A stretch of 64,000 bases of DNA, taken from assembly GCF_049337375.1 (NCBI RefSeq), contig NZ_JBMPIV010000001.1; one strand, written 5' to 3'. This DNA is from Nannocystis pusilla. Its GTDB lineage: Bacteria; Myxococcota_A; Polyangia; Nannocystales; Nannocystaceae. A program made the translations under genes and the position numbers. The notes under the pieces were generated by a model that made no database searches, was not told the origin of the DNA, and saw only the letters and a list, made by a program, of their open reading frames with translations. Positions 14,565-60,225 of this stretch are shown here, piece after piece; the stretch's first letter is position 1, and each line of letters starts with the position of its first letter.

Positions 14565-14690
14565 CCCCGCGTGTCCCGAGCGGACGTGCGGCCCGGCGGT
14601 CGATGGCCGCCAGGACATGTCCGTGAGGATATGCTCGATAGGACATGATCTCGAGAGCCTGTCCATGAGGACATGCTCGCGAGATCCTAT
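14565..14690. repeat. cluster of GGACATGTCC-type palindromic units (5 half-sites) in a convergent intergenic spacer
   Basis: caGGACATGTCCgtgagg, atatgctc, GGACATGATC, gtccatgaGGACATGCTC, all between the mqnD and ABC-ATPase stops. Confidence 0.6.
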
Positions 14691-14712
14691 AGCGATGGCG
14701 ACGGGGCGGACG

Positions 14713-15486
14713 TCAGCCCAGGGGCAGGGCCTCGAAGAACAGGCGGCCGTCTCGCTCGTGGGCGACCACGCCGAAGGCCGCGCCGAGGTGCTGCGGGCTG
14801 AAGACGTCGGGGCAGGCGCCGACGCGGGCGCGGCCGGCGGCGAGCAGGACCGCGTCGTCGGCGTGGCGGCGGGCGAGGTCGAGGTCGTGCTCGGCGACGA
14901 GGACCGCGACGCCCTCGCGCGCGAGGGCCCGCAGGTGGCGGTAGAGGCCGAGGGCGTGGCCGATGTCGAGGCCGGCGGCCGGCTCGTCGAGGATGACGAC
15001 GGCGGCCTCGGCCGCGAGCATGCGCGCGAGCATGACGCGCTGGCGCTCGCCGCCGCTGAGCCGGCCGATCGGGCGCTCGGCGAAGGCGGCGAGGCCGAGG
15101 CGCGCGAGGGCGGCTTCGGCGGCTTCGGCGTCGGCGGCGCGCGGCGGACCGAAGCGCGGGAGGTTCGGCAGCCGGCCGAGGAGGACGACCTCCCGCACGT
15201 GGAGGTCGGGCTCGACGGGGCAGTGCTGCGGCAAATAGGCCAGCCGGCGGGCGCGCGCGGCGGGCGAGAGGGCGACGAGGCGGTCGCCGAGCAGCTCGAC
15301 GTGGCCGGCCTGCGGACGGTCGAGCCCGGCGAGGGTGCGCAGCAAGGTCGACTTGCCGGCGCCGTTGGGGCCGGCGACGACGCAGATCCGGCCGCGCCGG
15401 AGGTCGAGGTCGAGGGCCTCGTAGAGGACCCGCTCGGCGAGCCGGCAGGTCAGGCCGCGAGCGGCGAGGGCGGGCGCCTCGGTCAT
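14713..15486 (-). CDS. ABC transporter ATP-binding protein (FecE/heme-siderophore-like), no adjacent permease
   Basis: Walker A GPNGAGKST, ABC signature LSGGERQRV, Walker B VVILDEPAAGLD. Confidence 0.8.
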   Translation of the reverse strand: MTEAPALAARGLTCRLAERVLYEALDLDLRRGRICVVAGPNGAGKSTLLRTLAGLDRPQAGHVELLGDRLVALSPAARARRLAYLPQHCPVEPDLHVREVVLLGRLPNLPRFGPPRAADAEAAEAALARLGLAAFAERPIGRLSGGERQRVMLARMLAAEAAVVILDEPAAGLDIGHALGLYRHLRALAREGVAVLVAEHDLDLARRHADDAVLLAAGRARVGACPDVFSPQHLGAAFGVVAHERDGRLFFEALPLG

Positions 15487-15595
15487 GTCCGGCATTAATA
15501 GGAGAGAGCCGGGGGGGCGCCGCAAGCCCGCGGGCAAGAGGTGGCGCACGCGCAGGCACGGGCGCGCCGGCGCCGGATCGACTAGTGTTCGCCGC

Positions 15596-56963: not shown

Positions 56964-57174
56964 GCCCGAGGTTTTCCTGCTCGAAGGGCCGCGGAGTCAA
57001 GCCCGGCGCGCCGCGTCGGCGAAGGTCCCGACGCGGCCCCGAGTTCGCCGCAGGCCCGGACGGCGAATGCCGTTTCGCGTCCCGCCGCGGCGGCGCTGCG
57101 GCCGCTCCCCTGCAAACAGGGGCGCCGCGCGCCTCCAGGCCCACAACGCCGCCGGCCCTTGATACCATGCAGGC

Positions 57175-60147
57175 GTGGGCGAGGCGGCGAGGACGGGCGA
57201 GGGGCCTTTCGCGGAGGGCCCGCCGAGCGCGCGCAGCACCGCCGGGGCCCTGTCCGACCTCGATCAGTCGCACCTGACCGGGGTCGAGACGCTGGCCGAG
57301 TCGCCGTCGATCGACGAGGTGCAGGCGCTCAAGTTCGAGCGCGGGGCGGCGATCGAGCGCTACACGGTGCTCGACCGCATCGGCGCGGGGGCGATGGGCG
57401 TGGTCTACACCGCCTACGACCCGCGGCTCGACCGCCGGGTGGCGCTGAAGATCATGCACGCCCGCCCCGGCCACCGCGCCGACGAGATCGTCGGCCGGCT
57501 GCTGCGCGAGGCCCAGGCGCTGGCCAGGCTGCAGCACCCGAACGTGGTCGCCATCTACGACGCCAACCGCATCGGCGAGCTGGTGTACCTGACGATGGAG
57601 CTGGTCGACGGGCAGAACCTGTCGCGCTGGCTCAAGGACGGCAAGCGGACCAGCCAGGAGATCCTCGACACCTTCGTCGCCGCCGGCCGCGGGCTGGCGG
57701 CGGCGCACAAGGCCGGGATCGTCCACCGCGACTTCAAGCCCGACAACGTGCTGGTCGGCCGCGACGGGCGGGTGCGCGTGGTCGACTTCGGCATCGCCCG
57801 CGGCGCGGAGGGGCCCGAGTTCACGGCTGTCCCTCGGGACATGTCCGAGAACATCTCGACGCCGCCGAGCGCGTCGATGTCGGCGAGCCTGTCGCCGTTC
57901 GCCACCACCGACAAGGGCAACTCGGCGCCGCTGGCCGACACCGACCCGGCGGCGGCCAAGCTGCAGGCGGCCGCGCTGGCCTCGCAGACGCCGCAGACGG
58001 GGCTCGACTCGGCGATCGCGGGGCTGTCGTCGATGCGGCTGACGCGGACCGGCGCGCTGGTCGGGACGCCGGCCTACATGGCGCCCGAGCAGCACATGGG
58101 GCAGCGCGTCGACGCGCGCGCCGACCAGTTCGCGTTCGCGGTGGCGCTGTTCGAGGCGCTGTTCAAGGCCCACCCGTTCCCGGCCAAGAATTACGTGCAG
58201 CTGACGACGAGCGTGCTCGGCGGCAAGATCGACGCCACGCCGGTGCGCACGTCGGTGCCGCTGCACGTGCGGCGGGCGATCCTCCGCGCGCTGGCGGTCG
58301 AGCCGAGCCAGCGGTTCGAGTCGATGGACGCGATGCTGGCCGCGCTGGCGCCGACGGACCGGCGGCGGCGCACGATCTTCGGCGCGCTGGCGGTGGCCGG
58401 CGTGGCGGCGACGGTGGCCGGCGGGATCGTGTGGGCGCAGGTCAAGCCGCCGGGCTGCGAGGGCGCGGACCGTCACCTCGTCGGGGTGTGGGACGAGGCG
58501 ACGAAAGAGCGGGCGCGGCAGGCGTTCCTCGAGACCGGTCAGCCGTACGCGGCGCGCGCGGCCGAGACCGCGACGGCCGCCCTCGACGAGTACGCGGCCA
58601 CGTGGGTGGCGATGCGCCGCGAGGTCTGCGAGGCGTCGCTGGTCCACCACGAACAGTCGCCGTTGCTGCTCGACCGCCGCATGGCCTGCCTCGATCGCCA
58701 CCTCGATCAGCTGCAGGCGACCGCGGCGTTGTTCTCCGAGGCCGACCGCGAGGTGGTGCAGCGGGCCGCGGTCGCGGTCGAGGGGCTGCCCGACCTGAAG
58801 GCCTGCGCCGACGCCGAGCAATTGATGCAAGGGAACGGGCGCTCGCTGGCCAGCCGCGAGGAGGTGGCGCGGCTGGAGGGCATCCTGGCCCACGCGGTGG
58901 CCAAGCGCCACGCGGCCAAGTACGCGGCGGCGCAGGGGCTGGCCGAGCGCGCGCTGCAGGAGGGGCGGGCGAGCGGGGCGGCGGCGATCGAGGCGCGGGC
59001 GCTCATCACTCTCGGGCAGATCGCAGCCGACCAGGGCCGCTTCGAGCAGGCGGTCGAGCTGCACACGCGGGCCATCGCGGCGGCGGAGGCCGGCGGGGTC
59101 GACCCGCTGCGCGGGCAGGCGATGGCCGAGCTCGGGCTGGTGCTCGGCGGGCTGCAGCAGCGCCACGCCGAGGGCGAGCGGCTGCTGCAGCTGGCGGCGG
59201 CCACCGACCTGCGCGTAGGGGCAGGTCCCATCGAACAGGCGCGAAGGGACATCTCGCTCGGCATCGTGCGGACGGCCCGCGGCGAGCACGAGGGCGCCCG
59301 CCAGACGCTGCTGGCCGCGGTCGAGGTGCTGCGCGCGGCGCCGGCGTCGTCGCGGCTGCTGCTGATCGCGGCCTTCAACGCGCTCGGCTCGCTCGAGGAC
59401 AAGCGCGGGCGCGTCGAGGCGGCGCGCCGGTACTTCGGCGACGCCCTGGCGCTGGCCGAGGACCGCCTCGGGCCCGACCACCCGGACGTCGCGTCGGTGC
59501 TCAACAACATCGGCGTGCTGGAGTGGCGAGCCGGCCGCGCCGAGCAGGCGATCGCGGCGCTCGAGCGGGCGCTCGACATCCGGGTGCGCACGCTCGGACC
59601 GGACCACCCGGAGAGCGCGACCTCGCGGATGAACCTCGGCAACGCGCTGCTCGACGTGGAGCAGTACGAGCGGGCGAGCGGGTTCTACGAGCAGGCGGTC
59701 GCGGCGCTGCGGCGCTTGCCCGGGTCGGACCGCGACCTGATCGACACGCTCTACAACCTGGCGATCTGCCACCACATGCGTGAGGACTTCGCCGCGGCGG
59801 CGCCGATCTTCGAGGAGGCGCTGCGCCGCGGCCAGGCGATCTTCGGGCCGGACGACGCCGAGCTCGCGTACCCCTTGCACGGCCTCGGCGTGGCGCTGGT
59901 CGAGCTCGGGCGCCTCGACGAGGCGCGGCCGCTGCTCGAGCGGGCGCTGGCGATCCGCACCCGGAAGGACGTGCGACCCGTCGACCTGGGCGAGCTGCGG
60001 TTCGCGCTCGCGCGCGCGGTGGTGGCCCGCGACCGTCCGCGGGCGCTGAAGCTGGCGTCGGAGGCGCGGACCGACTACGCCGGCGATCACGCCGACGCGG
60101 AGGTCTCGCGGGTCGACGCCTGGCTGCTGGCCCACGTCGAGCGCTGA
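57175..60147 (+). CDS. Ser/Thr protein kinase with long activation-loop insert and C-terminal TPR-repeat domain
   Basis: GAGAMGVVY, ALK, HRDFKPDNVL, DFG...APEQ motifs. C-terminal multiple TPR-like units (LNNIGVLEWRAGRAEQAIAALERALDIR...). GTG start at 57175. Confidence 0.8.
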   Translation: MGEAARTGEGPFAEGPPSARSTAGALSDLDQSHLTGVETLAESPSIDEVQALKFERGAAIERYTVLDRIGAGAMGVVYTAYDPRLDRRVALKIMHARPGHRADEIVGRLLREAQALARLQHPNVVAIYDANRIGELVYLTMELVDGQNLSRWLKDGKRTSQEILDTFVAAGRGLAAAHKAGIVHRDFKPDNVLVGRDGRVRVVDFGIARGAEGPEFTAVPRDMSENISTPPSASMSASLSPFATTDKGNSAPLADTDPAAAKLQAAALASQTPQTGLDSAIAGLSSMRLTRTGALVGTPAYMAPEQHMGQRVDARADQFAFAVALFEALFKAHPFPAKNYVQLTTSVLGGKIDATPVRTSVPLHVRRAILRALAVEPSQRFESMDAMLAALAPTDRRRRTIFGALAVAGVAATVAGGIVWAQVKPPGCEGADRHLVGVWDEATKERARQAFLETGQPYAARAAETATAALDEYAATWVAMRREVCEASLVHHEQSPLLLDRRMACLDRHLDQLQATAALFSEADREVVQRAAVAVEGLPDLKACADAEQLMQGNGRSLASREEVARLEGILAHAVAKRHAAKYAAAQGLAERALQEGRASGAAAIEARALITLGQIAADQGRFEQAVELHTRAIAAAEAGGVDPLRGQAMAELGLVLGGLQQRHAEGERLLQLAAATDLRVGAGPIEQARRDISLGIVRTARGEHEGARQTLLAAVEVLRAAPASSRLLLIAAFNALGSLEDKRGRVEAARRYFGDALALAEDRLGPDHPDVASVLNNIGVLEWRAGRAEQAIAALERALDIRVRTLGPDHPESATSRMNLGNALLDVEQYERASGFYEQAVAALRRLPGSDRDLIDTLYNLAICHHMREDFAAAAPIFEEALRRGQAIFGPDDAELAYPLHGLGVALVELGRLDEARPLLERALAIRTRKDVRPVDLGELRFALARAVVARDRPRALKLASEARTDYAGDHADAEVSRVDAWLLAHVER

Positions 60148-60170
60148 GCCGACGCGGCCGCGCCCGGGTC

Positions 60171-60225
60171 CTGTCTCGAGATGACTGTTTGGACATGCTC
60201 ATACGGACATGTCCAAAGAGGCTCC
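60171..60225. repeat. GGACATGTCC-family interrupted palindrome downstream of the kinase gene
   Basis: tttGGACATGctcatacGGACATGTCCaaagagg. Confidence 0.6.

Follow-up and report, generated by a model that had tools for sequence, protein, structure and literature searches.

A dispersed family of short palindromes in the window

We examined a family of short palindromic repeats in a 64,000-nt stretch of the Nannocystis pusilla genome (NCBI RefSeq assembly GCF_049337375.1, contig NZ_JBMPIV010000001.1), which in its full length is called the window and has a base composition of 72% G+C. A preliminary description made from the sequence alone had reported that the perfect decamer GGACATGTCC, together with longer versions and degenerate half-sites, recurs at 14 loci, mostly between convergent stop codons or in the spacers of co-directional genes. 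The decamer is present eight times (positions 14613, 35591, 35853, 40931, 42067, 54465, 57837 and 60205), as compared to 0.03 copies expected from dinucleotide-preserving shuffles, and GACATGTC is present 12 times versus 0.82 expected. Units of the family, as delimited below, are found at all 14 listed loci, and the three long versions quoted in that description are located at 35584-35607, 35844-35871 and 22444-22467. These counts establish a dispersed family beyond chance. Additional copies, mostly coding or weaker, lie outside of the listed loci, for example at 12512, 13270, 15826, 45259, 45796, 46333, 48629, 55050 and 63471. The genes that flank the units in the window are functionally unrelated.

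The decamer, which had been taken as the repeat, is not the repeating unit. Its half-sites, TGTCC and GGACA, are arranged in just two ways, either abutted (GGACA|TGTCC, the decamer) or 4 bases apart (TGTCC-N4-GGACA). The latter 14-mer has 10 exact copies in the window versus 0.04 expected under a Markov-3 model, and 26 copies with one mismatch versus 0.8 expected under the same model. Units are either single or joined head-to-tail with a strict 14-bp period, in clusters of 1 to 6 units, and Tandem Repeats Finder independently reported period-14 arrays at 20784, 40911 and 54456. For example, the array at 20785-20850 reads GGGCATGCCCGATC GGGCATGTCTGTCA GGGCATGGCTGATG GGGCATG. As two arms make up the palindrome GGACA|TGTCC, neighboring units share arms and the decamer arises at their junction; it is thus a by-product of chaining two adjacent 14-mers. 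An unbiased profile built around 43 exact decamers that lie outside of the ascertainment arrays reads ..CaTGtCC-N4-GGACATGTCC-N4-GGaCAGgC.., from which the GACAGGTC and GACCTGTC 'half-sites' can be read as the typical outer edges of arrays. An extended perfect palindrome centered on the decamer was rejected as the general form, as the flanking spacer positions are complementary at chance level only (0.29-0.45 versus ~0.30). The long hairpins found at 35.6 and 42.07 kb belong to a minority subtype.

Fixed spacing, covariation and folding of the unit

Statistics were collected from 406 kb of Nannocystis DNA comprising the window and 48 Nannocystis loci, most of which were collected because they have strict arrays. 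These triggering arrays were masked in density, spacer-class and covariation counts and were included in spacing, positional and terminator counts, and genes were called heuristically with a score based on third-position G+C (GC3). In this set TGTCC-N4-GGACA occurs 171 times versus 0-2 times for each other spacing from 0 to 12, and GGACA-N0-TGTCC occurs 100 times. The spacer is nearly free in sequence, with the commonest tetranucleotide accounting for 14 of 313 spacers and with a pyrimidine preferred at position 1 and a purine at position 4. Selection for RNA tetraloops was rejected, as the unit loops exhibit neither an enrichment of GNRA or UNCG sequences nor a strand bias.

The two arms of the unit also change together. 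Counting wild type-wild type, variant-wild type, wild type-variant and variant-variant arm pairs across the N4 spacer, the TGCCC..GGGCA variant gave 56/2/6/7 (odds 33, p=4e-5) with compensated copies at seven independent loci, and the TGTCT..AGACA variant gave 56/8/9/9 (odds 7, p=0.0015) with compensated copies at nine independent loci. No significant covariation of these variants was found across the GGACA|TGTCC junction (odds 1.2 and 3.0), which served as the control because no hairpin can form there. Therefore the unit is a 14-bp stem-loop, (CA)TGTCC-N4-GGACA(TG), that has a sequence-conserved stem of 5-8 bp and a 4-nt loop of free sequence. Phasing and covariation give the family a structure that goes beyond the decamer.

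RNA folding also bears out the hairpins. For copies in convergent spacers the fold energies range from -35 to -50 kcal/mol and the z-scores from -5 to -7, and two adjacent decamers pair as a 10-bp hairpin with -16.9 kcal/mol. A lone 14-mer folds at -6 kcal/mol.

These results bear on two alternative explanations. The first is that the family is an artefact of chance or of the 72% G+C composition, or a set of unrelated terminators that share a decamer. High G+C content alone would favor it, and it is refuted by an at least 100-fold enrichment over dinucleotide and Markov-3 shuffles, by the phasing, by the covariation and by the 48 independent, genus-specific loci. The second is that the arrays are sites on duplex DNA for an abundant Nannocystis-specific dimeric protein, such as a nucleoid-associated protein, a roadblock or, as in bacterial interspersed mosaic element (BIME)-2 of E. 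coli, a gyrase/topoisomerase target, which would bind cooperatively to TGTCC-N4-GGACA and/or GGACATGTCC in a 14-bp register where convergent transcription builds supercoils. Conserved half-sites, a free spacer and an invariant spacing are hallmarks of dimeric recognition, there are many lone 14-mers that are too weak to fold, and there is no strand asymmetry or tetraloop preference. In addition, repetitive extragenic palindromic (REP)/BIME elements bind gyrase, integration host factor (IHF) and DNA polymerase I (Pol I) (PMC3184786). However, independent recognition of half-sites does not predict covariation that is limited to the N4-separated arms, so the covariation speaks against a simple model in which half-sites on duplex DNA are bound independently. 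Moreover, 14 bp is not a helical repeat, which would place neighboring dimers on different faces of the helix, and no candidate protein was identified. We therefore regard duplex binding as unlikely.

Copies in the window and their neighboring genes

Five convergent spacers of the window carry units. About five phased units (TGGCCGCCAGGACATGTCCGTGAGGATATGCTCGATAGGACATGATC...TGTCCATGAGGACATGCTC) at 14604-14678 occupy the convergent spacer after a menaquinone-biosynthesis gene (13734-14552, + strand) with an RNA fold of -50.9 kcal/mol (z -4.7). The five-unit array at 20785-20850, which has the 14-bp period reported by Tandem Repeats Finder and consists of the compensated GGGCATGCCC variant, fills the convergent spacer between genes 19499-20773(+) and 20857-21885(-) and folds at -48.6 kcal/mol (z -5.3). 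The region at 35.6-35.9 kb has two hairpins. The first is a 28-bp perfect palindrome of two units (TGACCGCCAGGACATGTCCTGGCGGTCA, 35582-35609), which lies 27 nt past the stop of gene 34044-35555(+), folds at -38.3 kcal/mol (z -6.9) and is conserved in N. punicea. The second is the hairpin GGGCCGTTCGGACATGTCCGAGCGGCCC plus the unit GCATGTCCGCCGGGACATGC at 35844-35904, located right after the stop of an acyl-CoA dehydrogenase gene (35911-37719, - strand), with a fold of -47.4 kcal/mol (z -5.8). A near-perfect 28-bp palindrome (TGGCCGCGAGGACATGTCCTGGCGGCCA, 42058-42085) lies in a convergent spacer 7 nt from the stop of a metallo-beta-lactamase-fold gene (42092-42901, - strand) and folds at -35 kcal/mol (z -5.1). 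Finally, the spacer at 49.75 kb, between genes 49047-49646(+) and 49783-50841(-), has two to three units (TGTCCTCGAGGACAGGTGCGCGAGGACATGGCC, 49737-49769), for which the 66-nt fold is no better than that of shuffles (z -0.3). The convergent spacer at 27.4-27.6 kb has no units.

Other copies lie in co-directional spacers or beside gene ends. Downstream of gene 23009-24577(-), the co-directional spacer of 550 bp has six or seven lone, partly degenerate units of the GATGTCCGAARGGCAGG type, which are spread ~50 bp apart over 22664-23039 and include a higher-order repeat of 48 bp. Two to three units (TGTCGTGGGGGACATGTCCCGGGAGACCTGTCG, 54456-54488; period 14 by Tandem Repeats Finder, fold z -2.8) occupy the co-directional spacer between genes 53518-54321(-) and 54497-55678(-). 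The copy GGACATGCTCATACGGACATGTCC (60191-60214), which has a 15-bp spacing, lies 44 nt past the stop codon of a Ser/Thr kinase gene (60147) and folds at -18 kcal/mol (z -3.6). Units TGTCCGCAAGGACAGG and GGGCACCTGGCCCGGGGGACA at 44854-44899 and unit GGGCCTGTCCCGGGGGACA at 45259-45277 mark the two opposite edges of an insert of ~500 bp (44808-45303) that is specific to the window.

The copy at 22444-22467 (CGACATGTCTCAAGAGACATGTCG) is one compensated TGTCT...AGACA unit with extended arms, and it folds at -16.6 kcal/mol (22430-22480, minus strand). The likely TTG start of a lipoprotein-like gene (21875-22456, - strand; product MRHVAILSALAAC...) lies within the 4-nt loop of this 10-bp unit hairpin. 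This copy could therefore act by blocking the initiation of translation and not as a 3'-end mark.

Three of the listed loci lie in coding sequence. Two units at 40917-40940 are inside a MiaB-like radical-SAM gene (40595-41902, + strand), where they encode ..TCSEGHVP.. in an inter-domain linker. Three phased units (GGCCATGTTCGAGGCGACATGTCCTCGCGGGCA, 53688-53720) are inside the predicted gene 53518-54321(-), and TGTCCCTCGGGACATGTCC (57828-57846) is inside the Ser/Thr kinase gene 57175-60147(+), where it is translated as A-V-P-R-D-M-S and opens a hypervariable insertion in the activation loop. Thus, the reported placement in convergent and co-directional spacers holds for the listed loci generally but not for those at 40.92, 53.70 and 57.83 kb.

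Placement relative to genes

Across the 406 kb the exact decamer has a density of 0.335 per kb in non-coding DNA versus 0.028 per kb in coding DNA, a 12-fold enrichment, and the exact 14-mer is 8-fold denser in non-coding DNA. With the triggering arrays masked there are 39 exact versus 101 one-mismatch decamers, and 59 exact versus 134 one-mismatch 14-mers. The frequency of about one exact decamer per 10 kb extrapolates to roughly 1,200 copies per 12-13 Mb genome. The decamer is thus both far above random expectation and strongly concentrated between genes.

The orientation of the neighboring genes has a large effect. A unit is carried by 72% of 40 convergent spacers (7.1 units per kb), by 33% of 116 co-directional spacers (2.8 units per kb) and by 16% of 45 divergent spacers (0.76 units per kb), which upholds the proposed enrichment between convergent genes and in co-directional spacers. 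When the trigger loci are included, 43 of 52 convergent spacers have units. In co-directional spacers the units tend to lie on the side of the upstream stop and not on that of the downstream start (30 versus 11, p=0.008), and the median distance from a stop codon to the first unit is 46 nt. The NCBI annotation of the N. punicea locus gives the same placement picture at that locus. This distribution is that of a 3'-end or tolerated-site element and not that of promoter operators.

The binding sites of a global regulator, one of the roles raised in the preliminary description, are accordingly unlikely, as units are rarest in the divergent, promoter-bearing spacers and the flanking genes share no function. 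The likeness to operator arrays is nonetheless real at the level of architecture. E. coli MetJ met-boxes are 8-bp tandem palindromic operators that are bound cooperatively, and they share with the Nannocystis units a conserved palindromic sequence that is repeated head-to-tail in strict register. Palindromic half-sites at a fixed spacing, as found in operator arrays, are also present in the units (N4 171 versus 0-2). The units differ from operators in lying at gene 3' ends instead of promoters, in having no coherent regulon, in numbering in the thousands by extrapolation and in exhibiting hairpin-type covariation.

Taxonomic spread and relatives

The strict two-unit pattern TGTCCN4GGACATGTCCN4GGACA, which has 20 specified bases and for which about one chance match was estimated, was searched for in 185,579 species of bacteria and archaea, each represented by one genome. 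The scan returned 65 stretches, of which 48 are from Nannocystis, 14 from Mesorhizobium and three are singletons, and no match was found in viral contigs. The Nannocystis loci are distributed over N. bainbridge (16), N. punicea (6), N. pusilla (6), strain RBIL2 (3), N. exedens (2), N. radixulma (1) and four metagenome-assembled genomes (14). Among these loci the half-sites are constant and the spacers and flanks are variable.

Comparison with relatives indicates where the family expanded. The N. punicea locus (L001) aligns to 25.8-47.4 kb of the window with ~93% DNA identity, and the acyl-CoA dehydrogenase encoded at 35911-37719(-) is 96% identical to the N. punicea protein. Two further levels of relatedness were compared, one with 81% protein identity (L002) and one with 74% protein identity (L004/L005). 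The 81% relative has the motif in only one orthologous spacer and the 74% relative has essentially no orthologous spacers with the motif, from which it follows that the family expanded in the Nannocystis lineage.

The Mesorhizobium matches (L008, L011, L013, L017, L022, L041, L044, L047, L056, L057, L061, L063, L068 and L070) belong to a different element, a fixed 44-bp perfect palindrome (CCCCCCTCTGTCCTGCCGGACATGTCCGGCAGGACAGAGGGGGG) that holds the same 28-nt core, that is exactly TGTCC-tgcc-GGACATGTCC-ggca-GGACA. Unlike the Nannocystis units this element is fixed in sequence including its spacers, is embedded within CCCCCCTC...GAGGGGGG, has about one strict copy per genome and forms no 14-bp arrays. 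At one of these loci (L056, 1916-1959 and 4066-4219) halves of the 44-mer flank a body of ~110 bp at 4066-4219 that has inner CTCCCCC..GGGGGAG hairpins. Judged from its sequence, the Mesorhizobium element looks like a MITE (miniature transposable element with inverted repeats) whose 44-mer is two abutted 22-bp terminal repeats. No literature on its core was found.

The preliminary description knew of no described element with this core, and we likewise found no description of the motif in the bacterial literature and no literature on REPs in myxobacteria. Mapped transcript 3' ends were also looked for and not found for any myxobacterium, Nannocystis included. The only literature appearance of GGACATGTCC, as the p53 half-site consensus, is a coincidence.

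Turnover, coding copies and mobility

Comparison of the window with N. punicea shows that individual copies differ between the two. The second unit at 35.89 kb is present in the window and absent or degenerate in N. punicea, and the 42.07 kb hairpin is tandemly duplicated in N. punicea with a 66-bp period, a duplication that the window does not have. We read these differences as local turnover. In many arrays adjacent spacers are identical, as 14-bp slippage predicts. A candidate synteny breakpoint at an array (L026 versus L043) was discarded, as homology that ends at the array could just as well reflect the end of a gene with a rapidly evolving spacer after it. Another locus (L035) overlaps the window but is not syntenic with it downstream.

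Two larger differences lie beside units. The ~500-bp insert at 44808-45303 is bounded by units and absent from N. punicea, where the flanking genes (coding for a Fer2_4 protein and a sarcosine-oxidase-alpha-like protein) overlap by 4 nt. It has 4.4 copies of a 60-bp repeat (tandem repeat 44909-45177) and a minus-strand open frame of 171 aa (44793-45308) with TAELTGPEPSSSTAEPAQSA-type repeats and a third-position G+C of 0.84, the ends of which overlap both neighbors; in this it resembles the intra-operon repeats of the mycobacterial interspersed repetitive unit (MIRU) type. In N. punicea, the region L001 4750-5830 (equivalent to 41903-42057 of the window) has an extra 261-aa open reading frame (~1 kb) without Pfam domains, which lies between the MiaB-like and metallo-beta-lactamase-fold genes, adjoins the 66-bp duplication and is absent from the window and the 81% relative.

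Coding sequence has nine exact decamers in 316 kb, where extrapolation of the shuffle rate predicts roughly 0.15. These coding copies are nearly always in the frame GTC CNN NNG GAC ATG TCC NNN NGG ACA, which reads V-P/L-x-D-M-S-x-G-T, and they sit in variable segments. The copy in the MiaB-like gene (40917-40940) falls on an insertion of 4 aa that is seen in comparison with more distant orthologs. For the copy in the kinase gene (57790-57870 in the window), the annotated N. pusilla ortholog P0121 is 294 aa long versus 990 aa and shifts frame exactly at the unit (GTCPRTS versus VPRDMSEN), which reflects either a genuine frameshift or a faulty assembly at the palindrome.

Copies in coding as well as non-coding DNA raise the explanation that the decamer is a motif akin to the DNA uptake sequence (DUS) of Neisseria and the uptake signal sequence (USS) of the Pasteurellaceae, enriched by biased uptake plus recombination and used secondarily in gene-end hairpins as in those groups. 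The resemblance is that of a genus-restricted motif of ~10 nt that is in excess in coding and non-coding DNA, is strongly so at gene 3' ends where it is frequently part of hairpins, and has its coding copies in permissive segments in one frame, a distribution like that of DUS/USS. The decamer is, however, conserved no better than the 14-mer (39 exact and 101 one-mismatch copies versus 59 and 134), and the covariation identifies the stem-loop across N4, instead of a linear motif, as the selected entity. Strict 14-bp phasing is not a property of DUS/USS, known uptake sequences are roughly ten times denser than the exact decamer with its one copy per ~10 kb, and natural competence is not documented for Nannocystis. 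An uptake motif is thus highly improbable.

A stronger alternative is that these are selfish or neutral palindromic repeats which are spread by a hairpin-specific enzyme (a REP-associated tyrosine transposase [RAYT]/IS200-like HUH transposase or another nuclease) plus slippage, and which persist where they are least harmful without having a cellular role. This would account for coding copies far above chance in one codon-compatible frame and in variable segments, including those at the MiaB-like 4-aa insertion and in the hypervariable kinase loop that is frame-shifted in N. pusilla. The ranking of convergent over co-directional over divergent spacers is the classical tolerance pattern, strict-array numbers vary by species (16 in N. 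bainbridge versus 1-2 in N. radixulma and N. exedens), and covariation restricted to the arms without strand asymmetry fits recognition of, or correction in, single-stranded DNA hairpins. On the other hand, near-random loops (commonest 4-mer 14/313) oppose recent copying from master elements, and the conserved stems imply ongoing constraint. The occupation of 72-83% of convergent spacers in a genome without other terminators suggests that there has been co-option at least. The search for a mobilizing gene was also negative. Clustering of all predicted proteins from the 49 sequences gave only kinase and sigma-54-activator paralogs, and no recurrent transposase-like family is present near arrays in the 406 kb, a survey that did not extend to a search of whole Nannocystis genomes for RAYT. 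RAYT genes are usually single-copy. Around the 43 exact decamers no GTAG-type flanking tetranucleotide is conserved, with flank conservation reflecting neighboring units only, and no target duplications or terminal repeats around a body are present at the units. On balance purely selfish repeats are somewhat unlikely. The latter observations also dispose of the MITE-like role that had been offered, as MITEs have terminal inverted repeats, a body of 50-500 bp and a target-site duplication, whereas the Nannocystis units are 14 bp long and have no body.

A REP-like family and its possible role at transcript 3' ends

The best-supported reading is that of a previously undescribed, Nannocystis-specific, REP-like family of short stem-loop repeats. 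REPs are stem-loops that occur singly or in clusters, are biased toward convergent genes, affect mRNA stability and bind gyrase, IHF and Pol I (PMC3184786). With the REP/BIME elements of Enterobacteria, Pseudomonas and Stenotrophomonas (SMAG) the Nannocystis units share short G+C-rich stem-loop palindromes in very many extragenic copies, single or clustered, a bias toward convergent spacers and gene 3' ends, and a stem that is more conserved than the loop (PMC3184786). There are also several important differences. The REP unit is 20-40 bp versus 14 bp in Nannocystis, and REPs alternate in inverted orientation with linker motifs, whereas the Nannocystis units are phased head-to-tail and share arms. 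REPs have a 5' tetranucleotide of the GTAG/CTAC type, with none conserved beside the Nannocystis units, and a cognate, typically REP-flanked RAYT gene, with none found near the arrays in the 406 kb. Finally, the host is a myxobacterium, a group for which we found no description of REPs. Thus, of the roles suggested in the preliminary description (terminator, REP, MITE or regulator sites), the REP-like one was retained, the canonical terminator and MITE-like ones were dropped, and regulator sites are improbable.

With respect to function, high-G+C bacteria such as myxobacteria have few recognizable intrinsic terminators, and the way in which their transcripts are ended is not well understood. 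In the Nannocystis set, canonical terminators are found in only four of 52 convergent and three of 119 co-directional spacers, which is too rare to assess mutual exclusivity with the units. Among the window's few terminator-like sites consisting of a hairpin plus T-tract are those at 27519-27536(+) and 32941-32962(-), the first of which is within the unit-free convergent spacer 27370-27659. No Rfam match at the gathering threshold was obtained anywhere in the window. The spacer between the acyl-CoA dehydrogenase and binding-protein genes provides a direct comparison: Nannocystis has one hairpin past each stop codon, and the 74% relative has a classical A-tract/stem/T-tract bidirectional terminator exactly at the position of the Nannocystis hairpins. 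This is suggestive of the hairpins having functionally replaced a classical terminator there, although it is not proof.

We propose tentatively, as a reading that is quite possible, that the units are a structured element at transcript 3' ends with a role in factor-assisted termination, in 3'-end protection or in insulation of convergent genes. In a genome almost without hairpin-plus-U-tract terminators, the units may take over a structured role at the ends of transcripts, where, aided by a factor, they would halt RNA polymerase or make it pause, and/or they would impede 3' exonucleases and shield convergent genes from each other. The stem sequence, and not pairing alone, would be kept through recognition by a host protein or by the mode of propagation, and arrays would lengthen or shorten through slippage or duplication at the locus. 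The fixed length of the loop and the conservation of the stem sequence do point to either recognition by a protein or a constrained propagation mechanism.

Several observations weigh against a role at 3' ends. No T-tract follows the units, as the T frequency at +2..+30 remains at the background of ~0.15 (171 oriented cases), and a scan for hairpin-plus-T terminators flagged none of them. The units therefore cannot be classical intrinsic terminators, with which they share a G+C-rich hairpin that lies tens of nt past the stop, is usable on both strands and occupies the same position as the bidirectional terminator of the 74% relative. They differ from such terminators in having no U-tract, in having a shared stem sequence and an invariant 4-nt loop, neither of which is required of a generic 3' hairpin, and in that many lone units are too weak, such as the 14-mers at 22.66-23.05 kb that would not stand alone as RNA hairpins. 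Termination by a hairpin only is disputed in general. The data do not single out RNA over DNA as the active form, because single-transition variants that leave G.U versus C.A pairs on the sense strand in co-directional spacers number 10 versus 12, which in this small sample indicates no preference, and because the loops show no strand bias or GNRA/UNCG enrichment. The covariation could stem from correction of quasi-palindromes at replication instead of from selection, the convergent-spacer bias is also expected of tolerated selfish DNA, and the placement statistics rest on GC3-based gene calls and on strict-array loci (with those arrays masked).

A more far-reaching version of the 3'-end role, which we consider doubtful, is that a sequence-specific factor-dependent system has replaced U-tract terminators altogether. 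In this version a genus-specific protein would read the stem-loop in nascent RNA, in extruded DNA or in double-stranded DNA and would thereby halt or insulate transcription at the majority of gene ends, with the same recognition, or a non-RAYT hairpin nuclease, spreading units even into permissive coding linkers.

Whatever their mode of action, one easily recognized 14-bp stem-loop marks 72-83% of convergent gene ends in Nannocystis, and this stem-loop, which can be mutated in stem, loop and copy number, offers a handle for studying how a myxobacterium terminates transcription, protects 3' ends or manages supercoils. Its conserved stem and free loop point to a putative recognition protein. The family extends REP-like elements to Myxococcota with an unusual phased architecture of shared arms. 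As Nannocystis is a producer of natural products, the units are also candidate transcription-unit boundaries for annotation and engineering, and they are likely hot spots for indels and for assembly or frameshift errors.

Other tandem repeats in the window

Two additional tandem repeats are found inside genes of the window. A 66-bp repeat at 23571-23735 (2.5 copies, 82% matches) lies in the gene 23009-24577(-), which codes for a 522-aa protein without a Pfam domain. A 15/30/45-bp repeat at 1033-1145 lies in the gene 255-1160(-), where it encodes pentapeptide-like repeats of the form NG(M/I)(R/N)(M/L)NG.

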